Below are positions 5,836 through 41,628 of a stretch of DNA of 64,000 nt, piece by piece (the stretch's first letter is position 1; each line of letters begins with the position of its first letter). Location: assembly GCA_001244265.2 (NCBI GenBank), contig LN717261.1:1627591-1691590 (forward strand). Direction: 5' to 3'. Under the pieces are notes generated by a model. That model worked only from the letters and a program-made list of their open reading frames with translations. It was not told the DNA's origin and searched no databases. The stretch is from Microbotryum violaceum. Taxonomy: Eukaryota. The position numbers and the translations under genes are program-made.

Positions 5836-9143
<3,308 letters not shown>

Positions 9144-10899: not shown

Positions 10900-12147
10900 C
10901 ATGCAAGCCTGCCACGCGCTCGAGGTAAGTGTTTAGAATATGCTCGGCTAGTTGCACGACGTACTCATATCTCCGCAACCTCTCTGCTACCTCCCACGGA
11001 GTCTTTCCGGACGCTCGTTCAATCGTGTTGAACGCCTGCGCTATGCCTCGCAAAGCGATCTCTTGGTCCTTTAAGCTTCAAACAGCCCGCCTTGCGCGCC
11101 ATCAAGGATCATGTCGTTGCCTCCCCTAGAAAAGGATAATCCGATCCCATGCTCGCTCAAGCGAACAGTCAACGCGATCAAGCTAGTCGACGCGGCGCTT
11201 TCTGCCGAGATCCTAACGGAAGACGCGCGCAGGGATCTTATCACTAAGCTCTCTCTTGAGGCGGGTTCGACCAGGAACCACCCCTCTGGGTGCACCCTCT
11301 GGGGACATCAAACTGGTTTTTTGGGTTGGGCAGTTGCGAGCCATCCCGACGGATACTCCGCTAGCCATCAATAATCTCAGCGAGCTCCACCCTGTCATTG
11401 CTCATGCCCTGGTTTCCGGAGACGTCGAAGGCTTCTTCGAAGCAAACGGCTCTTGATACTGGACAAACGAGGGCTATTACTGCAAGCGCGCAACTTCGGC
11501 GGCACTAACGACCCCCAATGCCCCTCTTGCGGAGGGTGCCTTCCATGTCGCGCAGGCTGCGCCCGTGGCCGCTGTGGTTCCCGGGCCCCCTAGTATCATG
11601 ACAATAGAAGGCGTAGGCGAAGTTTTCTCTTACCACCTCAACGCTCTTCCTTGGGGTACGGATGGGATTGTCATTGTGGAGAAGTGTCTTTTCGTGTTTT
11701 CCACGCAATTTGATGCCACTCAGTTCCCAGTTGGCTGGCTGTCTTGCTCAACTCGTAACCTCTCCCAGAGGGATGCTTGTCTCTACCCAAGACGCCATCG
11801 ACAATGAAGAGCAGAACTGGGCAGACATCGAATCCGAGAGGATGGAGCAACTCATGCATCTGGCCGGGTCCCCAGCTCCAGCTCCAGCTCCGGCTCGCCC
11901 GCCCATCCACCGAGTGCAAACGGCGCCATTGCAAGCCCACTTGGCACCCCCAACGCAACAGTACCCTTCAGTGTACCAGCCCACATCCCCCACTATCCAT
12001 GTACCCACTGCAGAGCCCGCCAATGACAAGGACCGCTGCTACCGCCTTGAATGCCTCAATGCAGCTTGTGCAACGCCGGCCTACTCCGCGGATCCCAAAG
12101 TGATTGGACGACTCAGCCAAGAAGCGTCTTGGGATAAGGCCCGCACG
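10900..12147 (+). pseudogene. Broken Cys-rich coding remnant, possibly a DNA-transposon protein, cut off by the Gypsy-B LTR
   Basis: Fragmentary ORFs (QCPSCGG; GPPSIMTIEGVGEVFSYHL; CYRLECLNAACATPAYSADPKVIGRL) ending exactly at the LTR edge at 12148. Family not confidently recognised. Confidence 0.3.
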
Positions 12148-12385
12148 TGAAAGGCACGAGATTCCTCTCAAGCTTCACTGGTGACCTAAGCTGACAGGTG
12201 CAAGTTATATGGATTGCAACTAGCTTCTGGTGTCAGCCTGATCATCTACAAGAGTGCTGAGATATGGAACACCAGTACTCACCTAGCTTCTGGTGTCAGC
12301 CCAATGAGGAGGGAAATGAAGAAGCTAGGTGCGCGCAATCTCTATTTCTAGTGCCTGTGGCCCATAGTAAAGCGTGCACCTTACA
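12148..12385 (-). repeat. 3' LTR of Gypsy-B (238 bp)
   Basis: Minus strand TGTAAGG...CCTTTCA, preceded by polypurine tract CGGGGAGAG just after the chromodomain stop at 12429. Confidence 0.8.
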
Positions 12386-12906
12386 CTCTCCCCGCCTTGA
12401 AACAAATCCCTTCCTCCGGTCGAAAATCCTACTCCTTGTTCCGACGCTCCCACATATCCAATGCCTCGGCAGGCTCCCATGAATCGCTGTCTGATGGCCA
12501 CGAGACCCACGAGATGAGGTATTGCTGCTTGCCAGCACGGATCCTCTCGTCGACAATGTCTTCAATGATGTATTCTGGCTCGCCACATACATCCACTGGG
12601 CCCAGTTGCGCAGGTTCACGGTTGGGGGACAGGGCTGTGTCGTTCTTGCAGTAGGTCTTGAGCTTGCCTGTGTGAAAAAATGGTACCGCTGCATCGTCCC
12701 CGTTCAGCTGCAGGGTGTAGGACAAGATTTCCGGTTGGGCCTTGACAATGCAATAGGGTGGAAGCACCACGTGCAGTGGTGCTCCAGAACGATAGACAGG
12801 ATCAAACAATAGTAATTCACTAGAACCTCGGGTCAGTGAGCTGGCAAAAGCCAAGGGAGGTTCTAGGCGTGCGCAAGCTATTCAACTAAGCCAAAAGTTC
12901 TATTGC

Positions 12907-15900
12907 TATTGAAACTGAACAGCGATGTGCTGAACGAGTTGGCGGCAGGGACAAGCCAATGAGTTTGTAATCAAGTGAAGATTGCAATAAAGGAGTTCTT
13001 CACATACCTGAACGAGTTGGCGGCAGGGACGAGCCAATGAGTTCGTAATCAAGTGAAGAAGAGGAGACAAAGACGCGAATTGCGCGCGCGACTAATATAA
13101 AGTGGAGACGCGCGTGGTGCGGATTTAAGGCAAGAGTAATTTACTTCAACACCCCCCCTTGCTCTTGGCCTGAAATTTGCCGAAGGCCAATAGCGTCGCA
13201 ATGACGCTGGAAAATCGCTCGAGGCAGCGGCTTGGTGAAGATATTGGCTACCATGTCATGGGTAGGGATGTAGGTGACCAAGATCTCTCCATTTCGAATG
13301 TGCTCCTGAACAAAGTGCTCCAACATGCGAAGGTGTTTGGTGCAAGCATGGAAGACCGGGTTCTGGTGAGCACGATAGCACCTTGATTGTCTCCAAGCAG
13401 ACGAAGGGGCAACAATGTGTCAAGGCTGAGCTCGGTGAGGAGCGAGCAAAGGAAGACTGCCTCCTTGGCAGCGTGCAAAAGGCCCAGATACTCGGCTTCC
13501 GTAGACGAACACGCCACTTGGGGTTGGAGACGGGATGACCACAATATCGCGCCACCAGCCAGTTTGAACAAGTAGCCCATTGTTGACCTCGACGTGTTCA
13601 CGTCGGATCCCCAGTCCGAGTCAGAATACCCCTCGTATCCCAGCAAGGGTTCGTTGTTAGCCACGTAATGGATGCCCAGATCGAGCGAGCCTTTGATGTA
13701 CCGAAGGACGCGTTTGACGGCCTCGAGATGCGCTGCCCCCGCTTTGCCAACAAACCGAGAGAGATACCCCACAGCGTGTGCAAGATTGGGTCGGGTGGCA
13801 ACATCGGCGTACATGAGGGAGCCGATCATAGAATGATACGTCGAGTTGTCGGCTTCATTGGGGTCGATCTCGGGCAACAACTGGAGGTTGGCCTCCATTG
13901 GCGATTTGCAGGGATTGCAATCGGACATGCCAAAACGAGCCAACACGTCGACAAGGTATTGGCGCTGCAGGAGGGTGATCCCGCCATCATCATGCCGGAC
14001 GACCTGAACCCCTAGAATCCAGTCAGCCGGGCTGAGATGTTTTACGCCATAAAGGGTGTCGAGTTGATCCAGGACTCGATCGATCTTCCCAAGGTTGGGA
14101 CCAAAGAAGAGGAGGTTGTCTACATAGAGCGCAATGTAGTGATCACCCAAAACGTCGGCGCGCCTATAAATGCATTCATCGCAGGCGAGACGGCGGTAGC
14201 CGAGATTCGCTAAAGTGGCGTTGATTGTGTCGTTCCAGACTCAACCGGCTTGCTTGAGCCCGTAGATGGAACGGTGAAGACGGAGGCACTTGCCGTCATA
14301 GCCTTCGATGCCAGTGGGGACGTGCATGTAGATCTCTTCCTCCAGGACGCTGTGGAGGTAGGCCTTGTCCACGTCAGCTTGTATGATGTGGTGGCCCCTG
14401 GAGGCTGCGTGCGCAACGAGAGCGCAAATGGAGGTGAACTTCGCCGTTGCTGCAAACATCTCGTCAAAATCACCTGCCCGCTGTGCGCATCCCTGAGCTA
14501 CAATGCGGCTCTTTAACGACACCATTTTGCCCGCCTTATCGCGTTTGGTCCGAAGCACGTGGCGACTCGGCAAGATAGTGGCTGCCCTGGGAACGGAGGC
14601 AAGGTCGACCACGCTGAACACCTTGAAGTCGTCCTTCATCGAGCGGAACTCCTCAATGGCACCAGCTTTCCAACCTTCCGCATGAGGGTGGCGCATGGCT
14701 TCCTTCCAAGTACTGGGATCGCTGGTGGGAAGCGTGAAAGGATCTTCAGGCTCGGAGAGAGGATGGTCCGCCTTTGAGACATCGATGCCTGCCTCCGCGA
14801 GATTGGCAACCAGCGCAACAACCTCGTCGCCGAGTGAGAATGCAAAGGCAGAAGGTGTCAAGCGCAAGGATGCGAGGGCTCCGTACCGAGCCGGCGGATT
14901 GCGCGCACGTGGGCCTGCGGGTGGCTGCCAGGCCGGGCCAGGGGAATCGAAACGCAAGGCAGCCGGTGGGTCAACGTGCTCGGGGGGAATAATGATGACC
15001 CCGCTGTCATCGTCCCCCGCGGCCGGAAGCGGGGGCGCTCGGATGCCCGTTGCTCAAGCAGGGAAGTCGTCCTCAAAGAATGTAACACTGCGGGACTTGA
15101 AGACCTGTCTTGTGTTGGGGTCCAGCAGTCTGTACCCCTTGGACTCGAGTTCGTAGCCGACGAAGACGAGTGGGATGCCTCGCGGATCGAGCTTGCTGCG
15201 CGGCTTGATGGTAGCGGCCTTCCACGCTCGACAGCCGAACACGCGTAGATGGCCAGCTGAAGGTTTGGAACCGTACCAACGTGTGTGAGGCGTGGTGCCC
15301 GAGTTTGCAGAGTGCGGCGAGCGATTTTTGACGTAGACGTACGTTGCCAATGCCTCGGCCCACAAAGCGTGAGGTAGGCCCGACTGGTGGAGCATTGAGC
15401 GGACACCCTCGGTGATCAAACAATTTGCACGTTCGGCAACTCCATTCTGTTGAGGCGTGTCAGGGATAGAGAGCTGACGAGTAATGCCTTGCTCCTCCAG
15501 GAATCTGGAGAACTCGTTCGACATGAATTTGCCCCCATTATCCGAGCGGACAGCAAGGACTTTGCGTGACGTGGAGCGCTCCACCTTCGCGAGCCAGGAT
15601 TTGAAGGCCGCAAAGGTGTCGGACTTGTGTGACATCGGAATCGCCCACAAATACCAAGAATGGTCGTCCACGATGACGAGAGCGTATCTCGCACCCCCTA
15701 ATGACATGGCACTGTCGAACGTGAGGAGGTCCATGTGGACTCGTTTGAGCGGCTGAGCAGAGCGATTCAATGCGACGGCAGGGAACGGGCGATGCGTAAT
15801 TTTGCCAGCTTGGCAAGTGTCACATTTCAAATCCTCATTTGAATCTACCTCCATGTTGACTCCCGACACGGCTTCAGTCGAAATCAACTGTCGGAGGGCG

Positions 15901-17436
15901 CGTGGGTGGAGGTGAGCGAAGCGTCCGTGCAAGACCGACATGGGAACGGCCACAAGCGCACGCAGGAACGCACCCACTTGATGAACGAGAGCAGCGACGT
16001 CGACGAGCGAGGCCTGCATGTGGTAAAGTCCGTTCTTGAGCTCGCCAGTGTGACACACCATGTCGGCGATGGAGACCATTGCCTTGGCCCGAGTCAGACG
16101 GATGTCGTAACCCCCGATGTCGGCACGACTGGCGGAGAACAGGTTGACCGGAGCGGTGGGCACGAACAAGGCGTCGTTGAGTTGGCGGATGCTGCCGTCG
16201 AAGGAACGAACGATTGCGGAGCCGACGCCTTCGATGGAGTTGACAACTTCACCAGTGATGCCTTTGCGCGGAGCTGGCTTGCACTTGCGGAAGGACGTGA
16301 AACATGCGTGATCGTTGACGATATGGTGCGTCGCCCCGCTGTCCAGGATGATGGAGGGCCTGGCCAAGGTGGACATCGTGGCTGTGAGGTAGCCAAGCAC
16401 AGGACCGTCAACCAGCGTCGAGATATCAGGCGCAGTGACGAGCAAGGCGGAAGGCGCTGAAGGAGCCTTCGTCTTCTTCCCCTTGGACCCAGCCTTGTTG
16501 TCCGGGCACTTGCGATTCCAGTGCGGACCTCCGCAGTGGTGGCACGGTAGACTTGTCCGCTGTCGCAATCGGGCTTGCCACCATGGCGACGGGTTTGGGA
16601 GCTGGCGTCTGATCCGCCTGCGTGTGGAGCGACTGGAGGACCTCCGTCGGGCTCGGTAGCCTATCCAATCCTTGCCGAAGTGTTTGCGTGTAGTATTCAC
16701 GGTACAGATTCTTGCCAAAGTGGACAAGGCGGAACGACACAATCTGCTCGAAAGTAAGCTCGTGTCCCGAGAGCGTGTTAAATAGTTCAATGGTTGTTGC
16801 TTGGTACTTTGCGAAGGCGTCCATGCCGGTGGGAGGGGGTCCCACGTCGAGCAACATTTGGAGACGGATGAGAATGTCAGCCACCATGCCGGTACTGGCC
16901 GCCTTCTTGATCATCTGTAAGACTTCCGCAGGAGTGTGGTCGTAACCATCCTTTATGTGTTCTCGGATGTCCGGTGAAACAGAACGCATCAGCAGCGCGA
17001 CCGCTTGGAAATTGGCGTGATCGAGATCCGTGCGCGTGTTGGGTGATTGGACGGGTGTCGCGAGGGTGCAGTTCCAATAGTTGCCGCCAAGGGCGCCTCG
17101 CACGTCGTCGATCCATTGCGACCAGCCCCCAGCGTTTCGCAGATGGCATGATAGGTCAACATCGCGTGGTTTGACGAGGACAATAGGGGTTGTTCCCCCT
17201 GTGACCATGAGAGGAGTGCTCATGTCTTGATGACTCGAATTGGCTGGCCGCTCGGTTGGGCTTGTAACCTATTGAAACTGAACAGCGATGTGCTGAACGA
17301 TTTGGCGGCAGGGACGAGCCAATGAGTTCGTAATCAAGTGAAGAAGAGGAGACAAAGACGCGAATCGCGCGCGCGACTGATATAAAGTGGAGACGTGCAT
17401 AGTGCGGATTTAAGGCAAGAGTAATTTACTTCAACA
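12907..17436 (-). mobile_element. Copia-1: full-length Ty1/Copia LTR retrotransposon (degenerate) inserted in the Gypsy-A 3' LTR
   Basis: TSD ATTGC at 12902-12906 and 17437-17441. LTRs 12907-13151 and 17270-17436 (TGTTG..CAATA). gag ATG 17223, CHHCGGPHWNRKC knuckle, ILDSGAT protease, integrase (VRSDNGG, QQNGVAERAN), RT (IYGLKQAG, YVDN), RNase H (YSDSDW). PPT GAGCAAGGGGGGG. Confidence 0.96.
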
Positions 17437-18264
17437 ATTGCCTTCCATTGTACCTCGGGCAAAGGCCTCAGGCCTTGCACCCTCCCCTCCATCCTCTTCT
17501 TCAACTCCCAATGCCAAAGCGCCTCTGTCCCCACCAAGTTTTCACGCGCTTCCATGGTGGCTTCGTGCTGCGGATAGCCCTCCCACCAAACACGATAGCG
17601 TTTCCCCCCCCCCCCCCCCCCCCTTGTTGTCTCCTCCAATATCTCTTGCACAACCCATTCTTCATGTCCATCGACTATAACTGGTTTGGGTCTGGCGGGT
17701 TCTCGATTCGGAAGAGGTTGGGGTCGTTGGCTCGGTAAGGACGGAGCTTGCTTACATGAAACGTAGGATGTGATTGGTCACCTTCGCTAAGCTGCAGTGT
17801 GTAGTTGGAGGTGGCAACATTTGCGGCAATAACCTTGTAGGGTCCCTCAAAGCGATCGAAGAGCTTGGCCGACTTGCGGTGTCCCGTTTTAAATCGAAGA
17901 CGACGGTCACGGGTGTCCACCATGACGAAATCGCCCACCGCAATGTCCGGTTCTGGCCGTCGATGTCGGTTGACCTGCTCCGCTTGCCGCACCTTGGCTG
18001 CAGCCAATGCATCCCGGACCTCCGCCAACACCGCCTTCCGCTCGGCAATCAGGTCCTTTGCTGCAGGCACATCGGGCAAGTCAGGTCGATTGAGAGACGT
18101 TGGCAATAGGCTGAGTGAACGACCTAGGACCACCTCAAACAACGATTTGTTCGTTGAGGCATTGACGCTTGCGTTGATCACAAACTCAATGTTGACCAGA
18201 TGTCGGACCCAATTGTTCTGCCGCTTGTTGACCACGGCTCGCAAGGCTTGAATGGCGGTCTTGT

Positions 18265-18384
18265 TGGTCCGTTCGCTACGGCCGTCGGTTTCCGGGTGGA
18301 ACGATGTAGACATGGCGAGTCGAGTGGTCCGTTCGCTACGGCCGTCGGTTTCCGGGTGGAACGATGTAGACATGGCGAGTCGAG
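18265..18384. repeat. Perfect 60-bp tandem duplication inside the Gypsy-A integrase
   Basis: [20 protein letters not shown] is encoded twice in frame. Confidence 0.95.
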
Positions 18385-21300
18385 TGCCCATCAGATTGTG
18401 ATACGCGCGCCAGAAATGCGATGTAAATAGCTTATCCCGATCGGACACTATCCTTGTTGGCGGTCCGAAGAAGCGGTGCCATCCCTCATGAAAACGTTCG
18501 GCTATGTCCTTGGCGGTGTCCGCGGCCAGGCTAGGTATCAAGCGCGTGTAGCCCGATAAACAATTGGTGATCGTGAGGAGCATGTCGAACCCCTGGCTCT
18601 TGGGCAGGGGGCCCACAAAATCGAGAGCCACCTCCTGCATCAGCCCATCCGGCACAGCCAACGCATGCAATACCCCCAACGCACCCGTGCTTGTTGCTTT
18701 GGTACGTTGACATACATGACACCTGATGGAAGGTCTTGCGCCAGCGCGTCGTGAGCGTCGTGTAAGATGACCTCCCGAAGCTGTGGCACCACAGGTACAA
18801 CCATCCTACCCTCGAAATACAGCACCCCATCCACACAAGAGAACCCTGGCGACGAGTCGAGATTGCGCTTGACCTGCTGGCAAAAGGGATCAGAGTCATA
18901 GCCCTCCACAAGGCGGCCCCGCAGCTGTGTGTCGACGTCCATCTCCGAAACCGCCTGTACGGAATCAGGCTCCCCCTGCGGGAAAGAGTACCGGCTCACC
19001 GCGTCTGCCACGGTGTTCTCGCCTCCCGGAATGTAGGTGATGTCGAAATCGTAGTCGGCTAGACGTTCGACCCAGCGGGCCTGACGCTTTGATAGATTTT
19101 CCTGCGTCTTGAGGTACTTCAGCGATTCGTGGTCAGAAAGGACATGGAAGTGGACACCCATCAAGTTGACTCGCCACTGACGCAGGGCGTCCACGACCGC
19201 CAAAAGCTCCTGTTCATGGGTCGGGTAGTTGACCTCCGCACTGATGTACTGACGAGACCAATACGCCACCGGGTGTGCCTTGCGCCAATCCTGCCCCTGA
19301 AGCAACACGGCGCCTATCCCAACGTTACTTGCGTCCGTCATAACCCAGAGGGGATCAGCGGAATCCGTGTGGTCGATTGGCTTGAGACATGGCAGCAAGG
19401 TGACGATGGCCTTTATGGCGTTGAAGTGTCGCTCTTGCTTGGCACCCCACATGAGTCGGACATTGGCGTTCTTTGACGTTAAATCCGCCAGAGGTTTGGT
19501 ATGTTGGGCCAGACCATTGATGAACTTGCGCAAGTATTGAACGAGGCCTAGAAACCCCCAAAGCTCTGTGACAGTCCGCGGACGCGGCCACCCCACGATT
19601 CGCTCCACCTTCGACTGATCTGCTGCAATCCTGTTTCGCGAAATGACATGCCCCAAAAAGTCGCAAGACGTTCGAAAAAGTTCGGTCTTCTTTGGCAAAC
19701 AATACAGATTGGTCCGCCACGGCGCCTCGAGTACCTCCTTGACGTGGGTTTGATGATCCTCCATGGTATCCGAGAAGATAGTGATGTCGTCAAGGTAGGT
19801 GAAGCAGCTCTTGCCAATGAGACTAGACAGGGCCTTGTTGACCCGGCGTTGATGCGTCGCCGGCGCGTTCAACAGGCCCATCGGCATGACGACCCACTCG
19901 AAGAGCCCCCAGGGGGTTGCCACCGCGGTCTTTGGTATGTCCTCCTCGGCCATCTTCGTCTGGAAAAAGCTGTTCGTCATATTGATCTTGGACCAGAAGC
20001 GCGCCCGAGCTGCGACGGCCAAAATCTCGTCCGGCAGGGGAAGCGGTGTGCGATCTGGTACCGTCGCTGCATTGAGGATCCGATAGTCGTTGACCCAATG
20101 CGGCATAATCGACGGGTCGGTGTCCATACCCTTCTTGGGAATGATGAAGGCCGGCGAGGAGTATTCCGACGATGATGGGCGAAGACGACCGGCCGCGAGA
20201 TGTTCATCCAGTAAGCGTTGCCACACCGCACGCCAGCGCATCGGAGTGCCGTAGGTTGGTTGCTGCGGAGTCTTCATACCAGGTTTCAGCGCGATACGAT
20301 CGCGGACCTTTGACTCGTACTGTGAGACCGGCGGGATGTCTGCCGGAAATCGGTCCGAGAACTCCTTGCGAAATGCGACTTCAAGTGCTCGCAATTGCGA
20401 CTCTTCCGCTTGCCGCTCTTCAAGATGAGCGAGACAGGCCCGAATGCTCGCCTGAACCGCACTCTCTGACCATTTCCCCTTTTCCCCCCGGTGCATCAGA
20501 TCGATACGCTTGCCGGGTAGGGTTGGATCGGGGGCCAGCACTCGACGCCTTTTGCAGTCGACCAGGATATTGTGTCGCTTTAAGAACGGTTGCCCCAACA
20601 CCACTTTCAACGGCGTCAATGGCGCAATCTTCAGAACGACGTCACGGTGCTGGGTAGACCATTGGCCGTTCAGGGTACAAAGTGGCACACACACAAATTC
20701 AGTGCCGGGATGCGAGACCCTGTGACTTTGGATTGCAACACTAACAGATGTGGGTACCTGAAGCTTCCTCTGTGTCAACCGTAGTTTCTCCACTTCCCTA
20801 TCTGCGATGAAGGAAGCGGAAGCACCCGTGTCAACTAGAGCTCGCAAGGCAGGTCCATCCTCTGTTGTGAGCTTCACAGAAAGGGAAATGGGTTCACACC
20901 TCTCGTCATCCGTGCCATTGTCGTATTCGTCATCGCACAGGCAGTGTAGCTCTTCACCCTTGTCGTCAATTTCGTCTACGGCGTCGGATAGGGATGCAAC
21001 TTGTTCTGGGGATACGGGACCTTGTCGCCAACCCGCTGGGACTTTACAAGCCGAAGTTGCCCAGGTAGTGCACGTGTCCTTGAAGTGGCCAGCATTGATC
21101 TTGCGACATTTGAAGCAGCCCTGATTGCTCCTGAGGAAAGCACGCCTACGGTCGGTCATCGGCGGCGCTCTGGTTTGGGAAGACAACGGCGGCAGCGTAG
21201 ATGGCGAGGCGGTAGTGCGCAGCGTAGGCGTGGAGCGGACGGTTCTCGCTGAGGCTTGAGCTGTCGCCTTCACGGAGGCGCGGGTGGCACTGATGACTTG

Positions 21301-22116
21301 CCAGAGTCGCCTAGCTTCTGCGTCGAACATCTGGTAATCGAAGACTGCGGAGCTGGTGGTCGAGTCGGCTTTGACTATGGAGGCGTCGAGTTCGTTGGGC
21401 GACAATCCCGTCCCCTTGATCACCTCCGAGAGTCGGAGTCGCTGGGAGAGCTCCTCGTCCATGTGGAGCAGGAGCATGCGGACCAGTTGGGTGTCGCTGA
21501 CAAGACTGACACCCAGTTCCAGTTGCAGATCGCAAGCAGCCGTTGAAAATTCTCGGTAATCACCCGTCTGTCACAAGTTGTTGAGGTGTTGATAGTGTTG
21601 CCACATGTAATCGGACGGCAATGCGCGAAGTGTCAAATCGCGTTGGAATACACCGTACTTCTTGTTGACATGTGACGCGGCATCACTGGAATACCACACC
21701 TTCAGCTCTGGGTCGAGGAGCAGCTGGCCGATTATATCGATCTTGTCAACATCTGTCTTGACCTTCTCTTTTTTGAAGTATTGATCGTTGCGAGACCAGA
21801 AGAATCGAAGTCCCAATAAAGTGCGGTCGGTGCGGCAAAGGTAAGACGGGGCGTGCAATTTCCAGTGAGGGGGTGCGTCCTTGTGCGGTTCGCTCATCCT
21901 GCATGCGGCAGGACAGCGGCGGTCGTTGTCTGAGTCGGAGTCGGTCACGGTAACGGCGGAGGCGGGGTCGGAGGCTCCCGAGTGGATGCTCTCCGAGTCG
22001 CTTAGCGGCAGAGGTATGAGCAGTGGATCGGGTATGGCAAAGGCTCTAGCCAACCTGGCAGCGGCGCGAGTGACGGTGGGAATGCTGACGTGTCTTGATC
22101 ATTGTCAAAAAAAAAT

Positions 22117-22302
22117 TGGAAGCACCGCGTACAGCGGTGCTCCAGAACAATAGACAGGATCAAACAATAGTAATTCACTAGAACCTCGGGTTAGTGAGCT
22201 GGCAAAAGCCAAGGGAGGTTCTAGGCGTGCGCAAGCTATTCAACTAAGCCAAAAGTTCTATTGCCTTCCATTGTACCTCGGGCAAAGGCCTCAGGCCTTG
22301 CA
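22117..22302 (-). repeat. 5' LTR of Gypsy-A; the 3' LTR is split into 12759-12906 and 17442-17479
   Basis: Direct repeat of the split copy with ~5 transitions; contains the empty ATTGC site at 22260-22264. Confidence 0.95.
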
Positions 22303-25300
22303 TAGGGACCATCGAAGCGGTCCATGAGCTTGGCTGCACGGCGCTTGTGGGTGTGGAGCCGCTTTCAGCAATCACTCAAGTCGAGAAGTACAAGATCCCC
22401 AACAGCCCAAGAGAGTTCATCCCGACACTTCTTGTTGGACTGTGCTGCCTGCTGAACCTTGGAAATGGCAAGCTGGTCCCGGGCATCTTCGCAGGCTTGG
22501 AATCGAAGGGCAAGCAACTCCTCAACGGACGGCAAGTTGTCATAACCGTCGACACGGGCAAGTGGGGCAAGGGAGGGTGTGTAGCCAAGCACAAGCTCGA
22601 AGGGGGTTTTCCTGGTAGCGACATTGAGAGACGAGTTGATGGCATACTCACAGACAGCAAGGCACTCCGCCCAGTTGGATTGCTCCTTGTTGACGAGCGC
22701 TCGAAGAATTTGGAAGGCAGTCTTGTTTGTTTTCTTGCTGCAACCGTCCGTCTCCGGGTGAAACGCCAAAGAGAGCTGGAGCTTGACGTTCAGGCGCTTG
22801 TGTAGGGCAGTCCAGAACTTGCTTGTAAACAGCTTGTCCCGGTCCGAGACAATGCTTTGAGGAAGGCCAAAGAGGCGGTGCCATCCTTCATGGAAGCGCG
22901 CAGCAACCTCCACTGCAGTGTCAGGTTCGTGTGCAGGGAGCAAACGGACGTACCCCAACAGGCGGTCGGTGATTGTTAACACACGGTCAAAGCCTCTGTT
23001 GGCAGGCAGCAGTCTGACAAAATCAATGGCAATGTCGGCTATGGGTCGTGCCGGGACAGGTAGCGAGTGGAGTTTGCCAGCAATGCGAGTGGTATGAGCT
23101 TTCATCCGTTGACAAGAATCACATTGTTGGACGTAGTCTTTGACATCCCAGGACATGTTTGGCCAGAAGTATGCCTGCTGAACAGTCCGGTACGTTTTCA
23201 TATCACCTAGGTGCCCCTGCGCATCATGAGCATTGTGAAGGATGGACTCACGGAGCGGGGCTAGTGATGGAATGATAAGCTGGCCCCGTAAATACAGCAA
23301 TGCATCAACAATCTTGAAGTCCAATGTGACCAAGCCAATGTTAGTCATGGCTTGCTGGCAGTATGGTTTGGTCTTGTACGCGTCAAGGATATGCTGCTTG
23401 ACAGCATCCGAAAGCTTGACATGGGAGACAGAGGCCACTAGGGTGGGCAGTGGAACGGTGAAGGAGTATCGACTCATGGCATCGGCTACGATGTTGTCCT
23501 TGCCGGGCAGGTACCAAAGGTCATAATCACATTTGGCCAGGGTGTCCAGCCAACGGGCTTGTTGGCAAGAGAGAATGGTGCACTGGGTCTGGAAGTGCTC
23601 GAGTGTGGAGTGATCAGTGAGGATGTGGAAATGACCACCAAGCAAGTCAATGCGCCATTCCTTGAGTGCTTTGACAATGGCAAGGAGTTCCTGCTCGTGA
23701 GTGGGGTAGTTGCGTTCAGTGGGTATGTATTGCCTGGACCAGTACACAATGGGGCAAGCCATCTTCCACTCCTGACCCTGGAGGAGGACACCACCCATTC
23801 CGTGATTGCTTGCATCAGTCATCACCCAGAACGGAGCGGCGTCGGCGGAGTGGTTGGGCGGCCGAAGGCAGTCAAGTGAGGTGACGATGGCCTTGATGGG
23901 TGGCGGACCTCGTTGGGTGTCCAGAGCGTGGCAATAGATGAGAGTCCTTGGCGTGTCAAGGGAGTCAGCGCGGCGGTGTGCTCAGCAAGGCCAGGGATGA
24001 ACTTGCAAAGATACGGCACTAGCCCGAGGAAACCCCTGAGTTCCTTGACCGTCTTGGGTAGGGCCCAGTCTTCAATGCACTGGATCTTCTTGGGATCAGC
24101 ATGCACACTGGCACGGTTGATGATGTGGCCAAGGAACAAGCACTCTGCGGTGGCAAGGTTGGTTTTGGTTGGAGAGCAGTAGAGTTTGGCACAGCGCAGC
24201 GCTTCCATGACTTGGCAAACACGGGCCTTGTGCTCCTCCAGTGTGTCCGCAAAGATAGTGATGTCGTCGAGGTAGACAAAGCAGATGGTGCCAAGCAAGC
24301 CTTGGAGTGCCTTGTTGACACATTGTTGGTGGGTGGCAGGGCATTGCAGAGGCCCATGGGCATGATGGTCCACTCATACAAACCCCAAGGTGTGGACACA
24401 GCTGTCTTAGGGATGTCCTCTTCCGCCATCTTGGTCTGAAAGAAGGAGTTGGTCATGTCGATCTTGGCCCAGAATTGCGCATTGGAGCACGTCAAGAGAA
24501 TGTCATCAGGCAAGGGCAGAGGCATGCGGTCTTTGATGGTGTGCTTGTTGAGCTTGCGGTAGTCATTCACCCAGCACGGTGCGATTGTGGGATCCACGTC
24601 GCAGCCCTTCTTTGGGATGATGAACAAGGGTGATGAGTATGACAACCAAGAGGGGCGGAGGCGACCGGCCGCAAGATGTTCCTGTAGCAGTAAGTGCCAT
24701 GCCTTGCGATACTTCTTTGGGAGGGGGTATCTCCAAAAGTTGACAACAGTGGCCAGATTGTCAAGCTCATTGCGGTGTTGCACCGGGGATTGGTACGAGT
24801 GTAAAGGCGGGATATCCGTGGGAAAACGGTCGGCAAACTCCGCTCGGAGGCAATGGTCAAGCGTGGCAAGGCAGAGCCGTTCCTTGGTGTCAACAACCGG
24901 AGCAATTGCGGCAACCCGCGCGGTAACGCACAGCTGGGACAACAGCGCCAGCAGGTTGATAGAGTGTATGGGGTTGGCTTTGCAGGTGAGGTGTGGCTGA
25001 GGGAAAAGGCTGAGCTCCATCTTGTGCCAATAGATGAAGTTGCCTCCCAGGATAATCACGAGGTCCTTCCCAAGGGGCGCTACCTTGGCGTACGTTGGTC
25101 CTGCGGTCCAGAGCCCGTTGGCCAGCTCAAGCGGGACTCGAACAAAATGCGTGCAGGTGAAGACAGTGGGCCCTTGGTTTTGCATTGCAAGGGTGTACTT
25201 TGAGTGCGGTTCCAGGGCGCGCCTTTCCAAACCCAATCGCTGAACAAGCTCCTCACTGACAAACATTTGTAGTGATCCCGAATTGACTAGGGCGGAGGCA

Positions 25301-25327
25301 AGGAGAGGGCCATGAGCGCCAAGTAGG

Positions 25328-25793
25328 TGTAATACCCCAGGCCCTTCACGACTAGGTTACACAGTCCAAAAGACTGACAATTTCAATAGATGCATATTGA
25401 AATCAGAAGGGTAGTTAAATAGCGTAAGGCAACCGAGCCTTACACCCGCCACCACCAGACTTAGAGATACTCTAAGCATGATTAGACGAATCTCTAATGG
25501 CCCCACCGTTCATTCATTCATTCGTCACGGCCATTAGAGATCAAATAACTAGGTCGGCCCAAGGGCTAAACCTTGCGCCGGTCCTGCTCGGGCTTTTCTC
25601 CGCGGCGGGCGAAAATAGCATCCTTCAAAAATGCCCCACCGGGATCCGAACTGCCGACCTTTATCTATTGAAATAGTGTAATACCCCAGGCCCTTCACGA
25701 CTAGGTTACACAGTCCAAAAGACTGACAATTTCAATAGATGCATATTGAAATCAGAAGGGTAGATAAATAGCGTAAGGCAACCGAGTCTTATC
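25328..25793 (-). mobile_element. Non-autonomous miniature LTR element (TRIM-like), 466 bp
   Basis: 117-bp direct repeats at 25328-25444 and 25677-25793 (TGTAA..TTACA; last 2 nt of the right copy altered). 232-bp non-coding core; G-rich PPT-like GGTGGTGGCGGG next to the 3' LTR. No TSD visible. Confidence 0.85.
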
Positions 25794-26477
25794 CCCCCGG
25801 ATGGATCGGCAAGCCAGGTCGATTGTCTTTGCGTTCCGTGTGTTGGATTCCGTTGAATGGTTCATTCGTTCGCGTTGGTCAAGATCTACGGCATGGCTCG
25901 GGAAGGAAGGTCGCTCGTTTCTGGTCAATATCCTCGCGTCAAGGCGAGGCTCGTTTCGTTGTACTGGATCGCTTTTCTCTCGGCCCCGACGGCTCAACAG
26001 CCAGCACTCGAGATTCAGCCAAGGGAGGACATCAGGCGCTGTCGGGGTGACGAGTAGCTGGGGCTTGGCTGCGGCCTGTTAGTCCCTGGGGACCTCTACC
26101 TCCGGCTTCGACCCCTACCTTGGCCCCTCGGGTGTGTTCCCCTCCTCTCTGTCTTAGTATTCCTGGTTCTCCGTATCCCCAGTCGTGACTTTCTGTAGAC
26201 TCTCCCCCTTCTTTCTCTAGGCGCTCTTGCCTGGTTTTCGAGTATCTTTGCTCCCGCTCTTGGGATGTGAAGCGGCAGCAGTACTCACCGCCCGTTGGAG
26301 TCCGCGTTAGGTGCTCGGCGAGTTTTGATCTGCGCAGCGCTCTTTGCGCGCAGGGGTTTGACTTTCACCCAACTGCTTGCCGTCGTTGCTTTATAACCTC
26401 CTTTAGCTCTTTTTGTAGCGGTCCCAGCCAACCCGAAGGATTGCAATTTATGAGCCCCAGTCAAAACAAAAAAAAAA
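25794..26477 (+). mobile_element. Diverged LINE 3' UTR fragment ending in poly(A)
   Basis: Shares motifs with the LINE-A 3' UTR (CAAGGGAGG..ATCAG) and with the 33720-33784 terminus (CTTTAG..GTAG..TTGCAA..ATGAG..A-run). Confidence 0.55.
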
Positions 26478-26561: not shown

Positions 26562-28827
26562 ATGTCTACAGGAGACCCTGGGTCCCCACCGCCGGCACCG
26601 CCACCACCGGTGTCCGCCACCAGCGTCCAGCCACCCCGCGACCAGATCCCGATAAGCTCGAAGAAGACGCAAGCCACGGGCCCCGCCACCGCCGCACCCA
26701 ACTATGCCGCCGCTGCGAGTCAGGCGACTCAGTCACCTGAACAACAGCAACAACAACAACAGCGTGCCAAGGCTCTGGGCAGCCTCCTACAAGCCATGGG
26801 TGCTGTACCCGGAAACCGCAGTCCAGGCCATCTACTTCGCCGAACTCTACCCCGTCGCCACCGCCACATCGCTGAAATTCTCGGCCTCGAACGCGAACCG
26901 GTCTGTCGAGAACATCTTTGATTACGCCCTTGAAGTGACTCTGTCTCACCAGAGCGCCTCGCGAGCGTCTCATGCCGACAAGACCGATCTCGTGGCCTGC
27001 GTCACGAGGCTGTTATCGCCGATCTCTCCTATCTGCTTTGAGCCTGGAGTTCCTCTGCCGGACCACCTTGCAGCCTATCGACCACAGATCCTAGGCGTAC
27101 AACATTCATCAATCCTGCGTAATGGGGCGGCTCACCATCGCGTTACGGTTGGGTTCGTCACCGGCGAGGCCCGTGACGCTGCGCTTACGACGCCCCCTGC
27201 TCTCACTTGGCGATCGGCGAAGGCCCGCTTCGCGAAATCTCACAGGTTCCACCATAACATGGTCGAGCTTCGAATCAACGTCGGTGTTCAAGGAGTGCCT
27301 TCCATGGATGCCATCATCAAATCGTTCCAATTACTAGTGCAGGACTTGTCAGGCAAGGGACATTCGTGCCAACTTGTGCAGGTTCTGCGCATCATCAGCG
27401 TGGACAACGCCTCGGCCTTTGCCCACGTTGCCGGAGACTACTCAGCTTTCCTACACTTCGATGACGACTCCCTGTTCAAACGCCCTAACACGACCTTGAA
27501 AGAGATCCTACCTTCGAGAATCGGCCTTCCCACTCGAGGCATCCCGGTCACCGCCCTTCGCCATGACTATGAGAAGGAGGCGGCTTGCGGTAGGTGCCAC
27601 TTCGTTGGTCACGTGGGAACCTGCGGACTGGATCAGGAGAGCAAGCGAAAGGAGGCTCACAACGGCAACGGCAACGGCAACACTAACGCCAACAAGAACA
27701 CCATCACCAACGACACCAACATTGCGGAGGCCGAGGCCCCCATTCCTGTGCCGGTTGTTAACAGGATCGCATCACAGAATCGCTTCGCCGGGCTCGAGGT
27801 TGAGGAGGGACAGGAGGAAGCGATAACTGGCCAGAGCGGACAGGGGCCAGAGGAATCGGGGGAGGAGGACGCTGGTGATAAGGCGGATGACGAGGACTCG
27901 GAGGACTCGGAGATGGAATCAGAGGCGACCGTGAAAACGGAGGCCATCATACTTAAGAGCGAGGACGAGTCGGTTTTAGAGGACTGCGGAGGATCCGATG
28001 GAGAGGTGATTGATGAGGATGAGGTGATGGCGGATGGAAGGGGCGAAACAGAAGGCAAGGTGGCGACGGAGATGGAGGAAAGGGAGGTGGCGACGGAGAT
28101 GGAGGAAGAGGAGGTGGCGACGGAGGTGGACGATGTGGACGAGGCAGGGGGAGCGACGAAAGCGGAGAACGCGGAAGCGACGGACTTAGGGGAGACGAAC
28201 AGGCTGGGCAATGACGACGACAGCGACGCAACAGCAACCGCCGCCACCGCTTCCCGCGAATCGACACCCCACGAACCAACCCCACCTTTGTCACCCGAAA
28301 CTCTTGCCAAGTCGCTTCGCGAGGGGGAGGAGTGGGACAGGATCAGAGCTAACTGGGTTGAGCAGGCACGACTCGAGCCGGACCAAAGCATCGAGAGGAG
28401 GCTCGACGCTGAAACCCCTTTGGTGCGTCACAACTTTGCCACGTGGGATGAGGACGGTGAGATACGTTCCATCAATATCAGGGGGACCGCTTCGAAGTTC
28501 AAAAAGCCGGTAATGAAGAGGTCGCAGACTGCGGCGGACCTCAGTGACCCGAGTGACGAACCGACCGACGCCAAGCGAGTGATCATCAAAGGGAAGAGCC
28601 GCGTCGTTGTCAAGGATGGAACAGAGGGGCGGAGGGTGACGAGGTCGATGTCAGCGGCGGCGGCGATGCCGGTTGGCGTGACGAAAGTGGACCGAGGGAA
28701 AGCAAAGGGGGTAGCCGAGGAGAAAAGATGGTCCGACCACGAGCCCGAGGACGATGTCCTGCCCGCCCTCCCCCTCTTTGAGGACGTCACCACCGCCAAG
28801 AGCGCTTCGACCTCAACTACCCATTAA
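26562..28827 (+). CDS. LINE-A ORF1 (gag-like, single Cys/His knuckle, acidic tail); one frameshift near 26800
   Basis: Homologous to LINE-B ORF1 ([15 protein letters not shown] vs [34 protein letters not shown] vs LRHDYEAEASCRRCGFVGH). Confidence 0.8.
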
Positions 28828-31800
28828 TGATTAAGCACACCATCATCACCTGGAACGTGAGGAGGGGCATGGGGGTCCCGGAGAAACGACGTGACATTTA
28901 CAACTACCTATCCCTTTTCAAAGCATCGGCCATTCTCATACAAGAGCACTTCATCAGACCGCACCTCTGGCAACTCATCAAGGACGAGTACGAGGGCAAG
29001 CTCTTCATCAACCAACATTGTCTGACTCTAATTCCGGCTGACTCCCCCTGATCGACGCCGAGCTCTTGCGCACCCACTCGGCACTCGACGGCCGGCTCCT
29101 CGTCACGTCCTTTCGTCTGCGGGGCGACATCAAAATTCTAGAAATCAACAACGTTTACGCGCCCGTTGACCCAAAGCAACGAGCGAAATTCTTTGACAAA
29201 CTCTTATTTCACAAAACACAGAAATCCCACCTCCGACTCCTTGGCGGTGATCTCAACGACTGCCCGCGCCCAGAAGTCGATCGGCGGAACCAAAGTCGGC
29301 GCGGCCACCACTGGCCAATCCTGATCGGCAAGCTCGACTCGGCCTACACGGACTGCATCCGCTACAAACACCCCATCACCCCATCCTTCACTCGACCTAA
29401 TCCCAATCGCAAGCGACCCAACTCCTTCTCCCGGCTTGACTACTTTCTCCTGCAACGGACACACCAAAAAAGACTCGATCAGGCCTCGACGATCTACGAC
29501 TATCCCAAGGAGCTTTCCGATCACCGACCGGTCTTGATTGTGCTGGCTCTCTCAGACGATCCTGATGCGACCCTCCCACAGCTCAGCCTACCTACCACAT
29601 CAAACCAACTACATCGAATCAACACCACAACCTTTAAGACGGTGAAATTCCAGCGGATGATGGAAGGATGGTTGGAAGGGGCAAGCGGGGAGGAACCGGT
29701 GGGGGAGCTCGAGGTCATTCTGAAGGCGTGCAGGGATAGGGGTGGGGAGATGGCGAGGAGGTTGCATCGGGAGCGGACGGAACGGATGGAGTATTTGGTG
29801 GGGAGGGTGCAGGATCTGGAGGCGATACCGGAATGGGGGGAGGCGGAAACGGCAGAATGGACAAGGACGTCCGAGGAACTCAAGCGGGCGGTCGAGGAGC
29901 GCGCGCGCCTACTCCGGATCCAAGCCCACGTACCCGAGATCGCCTCCGAGGAACGACTGTCGCGGCCGGTCCACGCCAAGCTCGCGGCGCGAAACTCGGA
30001 CTCCAAGATCACAGCACTGCGCTTGAGCAACGGAGAGCTAACGCATGACATTGATGTCGCTCTTGACCACACGCAGGCGCATTTCCAGCGCCTCTACCAC
30101 ATCGAGCCTCGTGACCCGGACCGCGTCGACCGACTTCGGGACGATTTCCTCGCGCCGATCAGGGCGGCGCGGACTTGCGACGACCCGCGCTCGGATCCTC
30201 TCTTTCTGCGCCGACTCTCGGAATCCCAGATCGACTTACTCCAGCGACCAATCACCGAGGACGAGGTCGTGGCCGCGATCGGGACGACGCACCCGGGGCG
30301 ATCGCCGGGACCGTCGGGCGTGCCCTACGAACTCTACCAGACCGCACCCAAGGCGTGGGCCAAGGTGCTGACCAAGGCCTACAACGCGATGATAGAGCGA
30401 GGCTCACTCTCTCCCAAGCAGGGCCAAGGACTCGTGCGCCTCATCTTCAAGCGACACAAGAAGAATGCTGATCGCGCCGAACTTTCGGCGTACCGGCCGA
30501 TCACCCTGCGCGAGTGCGATTACAAGATCTTTACCAAGGTCTATGTCGCCCGTTTGAACCAAATTCTACCGGATCTCCTCCCGCCGCAGCAGCACGGATT
30601 CGTCAAGGACCGCCGATCGGCTGACGCTGCACTACACCTTCGTCTCCTGATCGAGGAAGTTGGCGCGCGCAGGACCGAGTTCCCCGCGGCCGCACTCTTA
30701 TCTCTTGACCAATCGTCCGCCTACGACCTCGTCGAGCATGACTGGATCTTTGCCATCTTTGACGCTCTGGGCGCTCCTGCCACCTTTCTTCGCGTGCTGA
30801 GGATGCTCTACTCGGGTGACTCGACCTCGGCCCGCTACATCATCAATGGGTTCTTGACGGCGCCGGTACGACTGACGTGTGGGCTCGGCCAAGGGGACCC
30901 GGCGTCGTCGTCGGTCTGGGACATCGTGTTTCAGCCGTTTCTGGATGCTCTACACCGTCGAAACATCGCGCTGAATCTCTCCATACCTGCACTTCATCCG
31001 TACCCACAGAGCCGCGCCATTACATCGCTTGCTTTTGCCGATGACGTTGTCGTCGCCGTCGCGGGCTTGGGGTCACTCAACTTGCTCGATGACCTGGCGC
31101 TCGACTGGAGGCATGCAACGAATGGCCGGCTCAACACGGACAAGACGGTCGTCCTACCGATCGGACGCCGCTGGGACCCGGGGCAACGCCCGCTCGTCGT
31201 CAAGGCCGCAGGCGAGTCGCTCGAGTGGATCGGCCTCCCCTTCGACCCGAGCGGCGACACCGAACTCGCCTACGCGAATCTCATCGAACGCCTCGAGGCG
31301 ACGCTGGAAGGGGTTCAGCATCGCTGGCTCACACACCACACCCGTGCCTTTTACGTCAATCGGTACGCCATCCCCAAGATCCTGCACTTCCTTGCAGCCG
31401 ACATCCCGCCGCCCGAAGTCGTCAAGAAGCTCGATGACATGCTCGTCGATTTCGTCCGTGGGGGCAAGGGCAGGACCAGCTACGGCAGAGATATCGTGTT
31501 CACAGCCAAGCTCAAGGGGGGACTCGGGGTGATCAGGATGCAGGACGTCGTGGACGCGGTTGCGGCACGGATCTGGGACGTTCTTCTCGGCGGTTCGGGC
31601 GCGATCTGGCAAGGACTTGCGCGCGTGGCACTCCAGCGAGCTCAGTCCGACCTCGACCTGGCCACCGATCTCTGGCCACATCCTCCACTCCCATCCCCAG
31701 CGACCTCCATCCCCGATGGCGAGCAGCATTGGGGGTTCCGAAACAGCAAGACGCGCAGGTCAACCCGAGGACCTTGACCACCGCGAACCTGCTCGCGCTT

Positions 31801-32924
31801 CCCACCTTGCTCGGCAGCCTCCACACCCCCATCAGAGGGAGACAGACCATCGACGCGGTTCATATACCTGACTACCTTCGTCTCCAGGGCTACCCGAAGG
31901 TGGCGGATCTCTACCGGCGCGAGTTGTATGCGGGTGGGGGGTTTCACCTTTGGACGCCGCCGGCGGATGTGCTCGGCGACAACAGCGAGTACGATCGACG
32001 CGGGCTCCCGCAGCGACTGGCAATCGCGGCCTGGTACCGGTTCACTGTCGATCGACACAAGAACACGCCCTTGGCGGTGGCGGTGGCGGCAGGACGGCTC
32101 AACGTGCCTCCCCGGATCGGCACCAGCGCACCGCTCGAGGCGATTATCCCCAAGCCCGTGGCCCGCTTCGCAATGGAGCAGCGCCTTCCGGACCCGGTGC
32201 TTCCACAGCAGGCGAGCCAGTACAAGCTGCTGAACATGGCTCGACCGTACACCATCCGTCGCATCCGCCGGGTCCTGAACGCGAAGGCCTTTACCAACAC
32301 GCTCGGCTCAAGGGACCACCGCAGCCGGACGACCTCAGGAGCTTTTGGAAGGCGGTCAACTCGAAGGCACTGACGGCGAGGGAGAGGGAAGTTTGGTTCA
32401 AGCTGATTCTCCGCTTCACCCCGACGCGCAAGCTGCAACACCAACAGAATCACGACACTTCTCCCGCGTGCCTCGTCTGCGAGGCGCCGGTGGACGACAC
32501 CGACCACTACTTTTTCGACTGCGTTGACTCTGGGAACGTTTGGATCGCGGCAAGGAGCGTGCTCTGCGACGCACTGGGGCTCGACACGATCGACAACACG
32601 CATTACACGGCTGTTCAACGCATGTTCGGACTTCCGAAGCTCAAGGCCAGTCTACGCGATCAAGAAGGAGCGGGGAGGACGATCGAAATATTCACCGGGC
32701 TGGTCTTGGAGATGATCAGCAGCGGGAGGTGGGGGATGCAGAAGTGGGGGACGAAGATGGAGGGTGTTGTGAGGAGGAGGATCATCTTGGAGGAGAGGTT
32801 GAAGCTGAGGGCGGGAGGAGCTTGGGGAGGAGAGGGCAGTAGAGGCTGGGTTCGACTTTCCCCCACCACCACCACACACACACACCAAATTCTCGTGACA
32901 TCATTTTCTCCTACTGTACACTAA
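28827..32924 (+). CDS. LINE-A ORF2: APE endonuclease, reverse transcriptase and C-terminal zinc finger; frameshifts near 29045, 31690 and 32320
   Basis: TWNVR, IQEH, NVYAP, GGDLND, SRLDY, SDHRPV; YRPITL, QHGF, QGDP, FADD; CLVC..HYFFDC. Confidence 0.93.
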
Positions 32925-33500: not shown

Positions 33501-33784
33501 TCGGATTCGCCTGTACAACACATGTACCATCACCAACGACTCATCCATCTTTTCCCGATTCCTTGTGTATAATCTTCAACCTTCCTTTCATTCGTCTCTG
33601 GGAGGGAGCAACCGTGGGTGGGGGGACTTGAACTCGGATGTATCGGGTTGGTCTGTTCTGCTAGTTACAACGCATCAAGCGGCGGTTGTGGTCATCATCG
33701 TGCATGCTGGGTAGCATCTCCTTTAGTTCCGTAGGGGGTTTTCTCGTCTTGCAAATTAGCGATGAGTTTCATACAAAAAAAAAA
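33501..33784 (+). mobile_element. 5'-truncated 3' end of a related LINE with poly(A)
   Basis: 33587-33784 is a diverged copy of 33295-33500 (GGGAGCAACCG..TCATCGT..TCCGTAGG..ATGA..TAC-A10). Confidence 0.7.
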
Positions 33785-41440: not shown

Positions 41441-41628
41441 CAGGGTACGGCGCTATCCTCGCGCCCAAGACTTGGCGAGGTTGCGATGGCCCTCCCTGGC
41501 GACCTTGGGACCGGGGCATAGTAGCGAAGGTTTGTTCTTGAATGAGTGTCACTAAAATTGGATGAGAGTGGGAGGGAGAAAGGAAGGGTTCGAGGGAGTG
41601 GCGCAGGATTATTTACGTGGTTTGATTT

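Follow-up and report, generated by a model that had tools for sequence, protein, structure and literature searches.

The window, by which we mean the whole 64,000-nt stretch of Microbotryum violaceum DNA that was analysed (contig LN717261.1), carries a nest of transposons that spans about 9.7 kb to 42 kb. One member of this nest, element B, is a chromodomain Ty3/Gypsy element on the minus strand, whose pol runs from 25356 to 22303 and is then interrupted by a second Gypsy element, C (22302-12759, minus strand), which has 186-bp LTRs and a flanking duplication, CCCTA, and is inserted in the part of B that encodes the SH3-like domain of the integrase. When the two parts of B are joined across C, both this domain and the reading frame are restored, and the joined pol ends with a chromodomain. 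The last open frame of pol (12881-12429, minus strand; PF00385, E 1e-10), of which the part 12881-12759 is LTR of the inserted element C, closes with the stop at 12431-12429. A polypurine run (12417-12407) follows on the same strand and, just downstream of it, a 257-bp stretch that begins with TG and ends with CA (12404-12148, minus strand). Lying directly after the polypurine tract and a pol that ends with a chromodomain, this stretch fits the LTR of a Ty3/Gypsy chromovirus, and it represents the 3' LTR of B.

The downstream end of the LTR was set from four public genome runs, in all of which loose ends of mixed consensus pile up at 12147/12148, just after the CA; a search for terminal inverted repeats gave no help in placing it. 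Summed contig depth is several-fold higher between about 12148 and 12404, also in 4 of 4 runs. The first-pass annotation had assigned the stretch to a Gypsy LTR, an assignment with which the chromodomain of the B pol, the polypurine run and the LTR borders from the runs all agree. No second copy of the B LTR was found in the window by blastn with word size 7, and neither a matching 5' LTR nor a target-site duplication was found; element B is truncated, its 5' part being absent upstream of about 25356. At this upstream end of the remnant, where the protease region breaks off, there is a 121-nt direct repeat (25327-25447 and 25676-25796; 97% identical, 349 nt apart).

The 5' LTR of C (22302-22117, minus strand) belongs to a sister family of B. 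A Copia element, Copia-1 (17436-12907, minus strand; flanking duplication GCAAT), is itself inserted in the 3' LTR of C, and with C inserted in B the region 12759-25356 forms a nest three elements deep. The pol region of C contains a perfect 60-nt tandem duplication (18265-18384; 2 x 60 nt, 100% identical). On the plus strand, the remnant of a second, truncated Copia element, Copia-2 (33665-35663), is flanked by two non-LTR, LINE-like elements that are related to each other and encode endonuclease and reverse-transcriptase domains (29042-32924 and 37551-41521; about 72% alike over 490 nt). A 723-codon open frame (26656-28827) without a Pfam match includes a 27-nt tandem repeat in 3 copies (28051-28145). 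Next to the end of the B LTR, the flank 11400-12147 is repeated in the public runs, where several contigs carry 9-20 differences. Element B therefore lies within an older repeat. The plus-strand frame 11617-12150 has no Pfam match. Further loose ends, at 12180/12182 in 4 of 4 runs, belong to another LTR family or subfamily, which has only the last ~33 nt in common with the B LTR and is quite different upstream.

A repeated 19-mer and an intron-like segment in the B LTR

Read on the minus strand, the central part of the B LTR contains two identical copies of a 19-mer. The upstream copy, R1 (12301-12283), reads GGCTGACACCAGAAGCTAG and contains a branch-like CTGAC and a terminal TAG. It is directly followed by GTGAGT, a consensus donor-like hexamer (12282-12277), with which a unique 44-nt spacer, N (12282-12239), begins; 38 further nucleotides lead to the downstream copy, R2 (12238-12220). 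The two copies have a period of 63 nt from start to start, and the whole feature R1-N-R2 measures 82 nt (LTR positions 104-185 of 257). A candidate intron of 63 nt can thus be read from GTGAGT at 12282 to the TAG of R2 at 12220, with CTGAC at 12236-12232 (GCTGAC at 12237-12232) and a branch A placed 13 nt before the final TAG (12222-12220). Three AGs are found downstream of this A in R2, namely CAG at 6 nt, AAG at 9 nt and TAG at 13 nt (ending at 12227, 12224 and 12220), and the motif scan chose a 56-nt form ending at the CAG and not the 63-nt form. The letters on the minus strand hence agree with the first-pass annotation in that a segment with GTGAGT, CTGAC and TAG occupies 12282-12220 and is preceded by a copy of the 19-mer; the statement that the repeat covers precisely branch point to AG holds only loosely, as the repeat begins 2 nt before CTGAC and three AGs follow.

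By rough arithmetic, an exact 19-mer recurring within 200 nt is expected by chance about 4e-5 times per window. The R1/R2 pair is one of 14 exact direct-repeat pairs of at least 14 nt lying 20-200 nt apart in the whole window, which make up 11 loci. The spacer resembles neither of its flanks: against the 72 nt after R2 the local score was 7, matched by 51% of 1000 shuffles, and against the sequence before R1 it was 5, matched by 96% of 1000 shuffles. N is therefore not a decayed copy of either flank, and the structure is R-N-R and does not consist of two complete tandem units. The minus strand has a third, degenerate motif, CACCAGTGAAGCT, at 12186-12174. TATA-like candidates are present on both sides of the repeats (AAATAG at LTR positions 58-63 before them, CATATAAC at 194-201 after them), and GTAAGG is found at LTR positions 21-26, about 100 nt upstream of the repeat. 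A search of Rfam gave nothing at E <= 1 across 11900-13300, and the fold of the whole LTR RNA is not distinctive (z -1.84 sense, -1.44 antisense). Self-priming, considered as pairing of the leader start with the primer-binding site in the loose ends after the LTR, was rejected, the matches being only 8 nt long with 2 mismatches.

For comparison with splice signals of the host, introns were mapped in a Cla4/PAK-like frame (6955-8385), whose product shares 90% identity with a protein named for M. saponariae, the next matches being other Microbotryomycetes; the host consensus thus rests on 5 introns of one Cla4-like gene, mapped with the M. saponariae-named protein. CTGAC occurs in all 5 of these introns. 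Their lengths are 49 to about 100 nt in four cases and about 440 nt in the fifth; branch and AG are 9 to about 38 nt apart, one intron using a distance of 9, and the donors are GTACGT (twice), GTAAGC, GTCAGT and GTACAG. The 63-nt segment has a host-type donor (GTRNGT at the exon border), branch site and length, and its 3' splice site offers several choices, CAG, AAG and TAG at 6, 9 and 13 nt. The consensus-type splice signals that the first-pass annotation had read in the segment accordingly find their counterparts in the five mapped introns as regards donor, CTGAC and length. Over the window, both strands taken together, candidates combining GTRNGT, CTGAC and YAG number 14, against 7.5 +/- 2.6 in 30 second-order Markov sequences, and a chance intron-like match is expected, by rough arithmetic, in about 0.015 of 257-nt LTR strands.

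The distribution of the feature within the LTR family was followed in the same four public genome runs, which carry four organism labels and gave, at 80% likeness, 120, 87, 83 and 30 contigs. The B LTR is multi-copy in 4 of 4 runs. At least four pieces among the 32 listed (records 7, 18, 19 and 31, under three organism labels) cover N and R2 and extend into R1; each differs at 7-19 letters and has 0-9 gap letters. The small number of gap letters indicates that copies diverged by up to about 13% have retained the R-N-R spacing. No variant in R1, the hexamer or R2 appears among the 40 variant rows listed. In minus-strand letters, position 12303 is C and position 12239 is G in most of the contig depth of the four runs. 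If both letters are on the same copies, the repeat would measure 23 nt (ATCG plus the 19-mer), the copy in the window lacking the two CpGs; the repeat length of 19 that had been reported for this locus therefore stands for this copy, while most copies may, judging from the contig-depth letters, have 23 nt. Run X10 contains two contigs with joints, one between 12206 and 12283 and the other between 12237 and 12379, as well as a loose end directly after R1 that leads into sequence like that from 12190 onward. These joints indicate that copies without the pair exist, and their borders differ from the splice sites. No contig joint skipping exactly 63 nt was found among the pieces listed from the four runs, where contigs show presence and not absence. 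In the bin containing N (12228-12273), summed depth, which is not copy number, lies below that of the neighbouring bins in 3 of 4 runs. A scan of metagenomes for the 19-mer gave a single match (L001), which is unrelated beyond the 19 nt. Overall, the 82 nt form a family-wide, standing component of the B LTR and not a private duplication of this copy; as a direct repeat within an LTR that is common to the copies of the family, the feature also has one trait of an LTR enhancer or promoter repeat.

The sister Gypsy LTR and the Copia parallel

The LTRs of B and C have a core in common (local score 15, matched by 4 of 300 shuffles). In C, the core CTCACTAACCCGAGGTTCTAG occurs once and is followed by TGAATTACTATTGTT, where B has GGCTGACACCAGAAGCTAG followed by GTGAGTACTGGTGTT. 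The single R-like core of C, with CTAAC ... CTAG, continues into TGAATTAC, without a consensus donor and without a second copy; the donor of B differs from the corresponding letters of C by one extra G and one A-to-G change, and the B LTR is about 63-71 nt longer than that of C. The presence of the R-N junction in the single-copy LTR of C indicates that this junction is older than the duplication, and C, in keeping the branch-like and CTAG letters with neither donor nor second copy, must keep them for another reason. GTAAGG of B, at LTR positions 21-26, aligns with GGAAGG in C.

In B, an inverted copy of 12 nt, CACCTAGCTTCT (12331-12320, minus strand), pairs with AGAAGCTAGGTG (12291-12280), which spans the junction of R1 and the donor; the 3' arm consists of AGAAGCTAG, that is, the last 9 nt of R1, plus the GTG of the donor. 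The counterpart in C pairs 22224-22214 with 22187-22178. In B as in C, an inverted copy situated some 28 nt upstream is the pairing partner of the final 9-10 nt of the R core. Comparison of B and C over the 9 shared pairs showed 6 invariant pairs, 3 changed on both sides and none broken. When the partner was slid by 1-3 columns, pairing dropped to 28-61%; the shuffle control is weak with only two sequences (52/500). The inverted repeat of the B/C core may accordingly represent a structured LTR element, and a conserved stem could be a second, non-splicing reason for part of the splice-like letters.

Both strands of the window were scanned for a word of at least 8 nt ending in AG, followed directly by GTNNGT and then by a copy of the word ending 35-160 nt downstream. 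Exactly 3 matches were obtained, the B LTR and two LTRs of one Copia family, whereas 100 dinucleotide shuffles gave on average 0.04, 0.01 and 0 matches at word lengths k of 8, 10 and 12. Shuffled sequences contain no repeats, and a fairer count is 2 families among the 11 real short-range repeat loci; of these loci, it is only in the B LTR and the Copia family that the first copy, read in the sense of the element, closes with AG and runs directly into GTNNGT. YAG/GTRNGT at a random repeat border is expected by chance at about 6e-5 per strand (rough arithmetic). The p-values are rough, since the pattern was defined after the sighting and many windows had been scanned in the first pass. Even so, the occurrence of the layout in two unrelated families within 1 kb is hard to put down to chance.

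In the 3' LTR of Copia-1 (13151-12907, minus strand), a 52-nt repeat ending in CAG (r1, 13059-13008) is followed by a spacer made of GTATGT and 20 further nucleotides (13007-12982), a second 52-nt copy (r2, 12981-12930) and 23 nt to the end of the LTR. The 5' LTR of the same element (17436-17269, minus strand) is without exactly 78 nt, namely the spacer and one repeat copy. In Copia-2, which is about 80% like Copia-1 in its internal parts, the LTR (35431-35663, plus strand) has repeats at 35525-35573 and 35602-35650, with GTGTGT after the first copy. Repeat copy number in the three LTRs is thus 2, 1 and 2. Between Copia-1 and Copia-2, the spacer is identical at 25 of 26 positions, the repeats at 90-91% and the first 91 nt of the LTR at 79%, and the donor is kept, as GTATGT in Copia-1 and GTGTGT in Copia-2. 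Both repeat copies of Copia-1 have TTCAC and GTCCC, and both of Copia-2 have (T)CCAC and GCCAC, which makes three lineage-specific changes common to both copies, from which pattern two CpG-type differences depart; the shared changes indicate that the copies were homogenised within lineages. The Copia segment is without CTRAY, its best branch candidate being TTGAT, 41 nt before the AG, and the 52 nt of r2 contain no AG before the final CAG. An upstream complement that would mask the Copia donor was searched for and none was found; an 8-nt pairing of the repeat start with the spacer is lost in Copia-2. Both LTRs of one element are copied from one template. The 78-nt loss in the 5' LTR of Copia-1 therefore fits slippage at plus-strand strong-stop synthesis or a later deletion, and it is no demonstration of splicing.

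The B and Copia LTRs themselves are not alike (local score 13 against 11.1 +/- 1.6 in 300 shuffles, 17.7% of which score as high), in line with the lack of similarity already noted in the first pass. The architecture in Copia, then described as the same, is the same in the succession of repeat, AG and GTNNGT, but not in the repeat, which is 52 nt long, nor in the branch site, CTRAY being absent.

Possible readings: splicing, plain repetition and strand transfer

The reading that we tentatively place ahead of the others, while giving it somewhat less than an even chance, is that in sense LTR RNA the 63 nt from GTGAGT to the TAG of R2 would behave as a short, host-type spliceosomal intron. Several observations converge on it: (i) GTGAGT directly follows an AG, the segment is 63 nt long and has GCTGAC 13 nt ahead of its TAG, and CTGAC is common to 5 of 5 host introns; (ii) intron-like candidates exceed their base rate in the window and are rare per LTR strand; (iii) the layout, found 3 times against 0.04, is on the sense strand of the element; (iv) in the Copia parallel, the donor and 25 of 26 spacer positions are kept, three changes are joint, and no AG precedes the final CAG; and (v) the family is multi-copy, with its spacing kept and with R1, hexamer and R2 free of listed variants. 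Transcription would start near R1, about 43 nt after AAATAG and just after a CT-rich run, so that R1 would form exon 1, and the identity of exon 1 with the tail of the intron would then matter for reverse transcription. Several points count against this reading. The LTR of C has the core once and without a donor, the three AGs after the branch leave the acceptor ambiguous in B, and Copia is without CTRAY; the copies in X10 lack the pair and their borders are not splice sites; the pattern was chosen post hoc, and the host consensus comes from 5 introns of one gene. In addition, the inverted repeat, which includes the GTG of the donor, could explain the letters without any splicing.

Close behind the intron reading, and also with a real though lesser chance of being right, comes an ordinary direct repeat internal to the LTR, whose splice-like letters would have no role in splicing. 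The B lineage would have undergone an expansion of about 63 nt, through reverse transcriptase slipping on its template or misaligning at a strand transfer, that duplicated the 3' half of a conserved LTR core, either a loop and hairpin arm or a protein-binding site. Repeats within LTRs are common, the enhancer repeats of retroviruses being one example, and the common core of B and C, with B the longer by about 63-71 nt, agrees with such an expansion, as do the hairpin arms conserved with compensatory changes and the degenerate third motif at 12186-12174. The Copia copy number of 2, 1 and 2 is what slippage is expected to give, and contraction followed by re-expansion can also make copies change together. 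A plain repeat nevertheless leaves unexplained why AG is followed by GTRNGT, and why the copy ends in YAG, in two unrelated families, and why a host-consensus GCTGAC stands at the right distance; nor is the feature a simple two-unit tandem duplication, N not being a decayed second unit. The remaining explanations have far less in their favour. The first-pass annotation had proposed a recursive AG/GT site, that is, a zero-length exon at which R1 serves as acceptor and the regenerated GTGAGT splices onward, so that the element leaves host transcripts. CTGAC...TAG/GTGAGT does have the form of a ratchet point, and GTAAGG lies about 100 nt upstream, but the regenerated donor would meet R2 as its nearest acceptor 63 nt on, which joins the upstream exon to the rest of the LTR and does not remove the element, and GTAAGG, the one donor-like hexamer of B upstream of the repeat, is GGAAGG in C, which leaves no positionally conserved upstream donor; we regard this proposal as very improbable. 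Slightly less credible again is the birth of an intron by tandem duplication of an AGGT segment (Rogers model), in which splicing from the first GT to the second AG restores the original RNA. The tail of the intron does equal the end of the upstream exon, as the model predicts. It further requires the beginning of the downstream exon to resemble that of the intron, whereas TTGCAATCC... is unlike GTGAGTACT..., the score of N against the 72 nt after R2 being reached by half of the shuffles, and the sister LTR, with its single copy, already has the R-N junction. An introner was rejected, as the 63 nt are enclosed by a 257-bp LTR that is itself part of a transposon nest and the borders of the element are not splice sites of a host gene.

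Returning to the intron reading, retroelements are copied from RNA, and once spliced RNA serves as template, any intron within the portion that derives from the 5' end should vanish; intron loss is indeed a standard marker of retrotransposition. We consider it unlikely, though worth setting out, that the arrangement of repeat and donor would let an intron in the LTR leader survive retrotransposition of spliced RNA. In each of the two families the repeat begins 42-43 nt after a TATA-like motif and comes just after a CT-rich run, a kind of sequence at which fungal transcription often starts. Were transcription to start at the first copy, splicing would join exon 1, made of the repeat, to the sequence after the second copy, and the spliced leader R/b would equal, letter for letter, the junction R2/b of the unspliced 3' LTR. 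With the spliced leader as template, minus-strand strong-stop DNA would then find its best match in R2/b at the 3' end. Its extension from there would take in the spacer, the first repeat copy and U3, whereby the whole intron-bearing LTR would be rebuilt and the second copy overwritten with the first in every cycle. Such overwriting would explain why the copies are identical and change jointly, as well as why repeat length differs between the families (about 23 vs 52 nt).

Among known systems, direct repeats occur in the LTRs of retroviruses and retrotransposons and are gained or lost by template switching of reverse transcriptase. The present repeats resemble them in being short, within the LTR and family-wide, and one of the three Copia LTRs has lost exactly one unit; they differ in the AG/GTRNGT border of the unit, in the YAG end of the repeat and in their occurrence in two unrelated families, to which the Gypsy LTR adds a host-type branch site. 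In ratchet points, too, a 3' splice region directly adjoins a 5' splice site of consensus type, but here there is no long host intron and no conserved upstream donor, and a second identical acceptor follows 63 nt downstream. Tandem duplication of AGGT segments shares with our case an upstream exon end equal to the intron end and differs in that the downstream exon start is here unlike the intron start. In maize LTR retrotransposons, spliced transcripts within LTRs have been described and called the first evidence of introns in LTRs (bioRxiv 10.64898/2026.05.08.723830). These introns, with a mean of 1303 bp, have RNA support and lie in LTR-contained non-coding transcripts; they are alike in having canonical splice sites within the LTR, but they are long and RNA-backed and, in the portion of that report consulted, come with no description of an intron-tail copy before the donor, whereas the present candidate is 63 nt long and known from sequence (bioRxiv 10.64898/2026.05.08.723830). 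Introners, including solo-LTR introners that are spliced as whole elements from host genes, also draw splice sites from transposable-element sequence; there a whole element or solo LTR forms the intron of a host gene, and here 63 nt inside a 257-bp LTR are concerned (PMC12130899). In the literature covered by our search, no description was found of an intron-tail copy placed before its donor in an LTR.

If the structure is only an LTR repeat, it is ordinary, and it serves as a useful warning that hairpin arms and repeats of LTRs can mimic splice signals. If, on the other hand, exon 1 is a copy of the intron tail in two unrelated LTR families of one fungus, this would amount to a new design rule for LTRs and to a new role for the first strand transfer. 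The element could then keep an expression-boosting intron without losing it, and splicing would be harmless to its inheritance.
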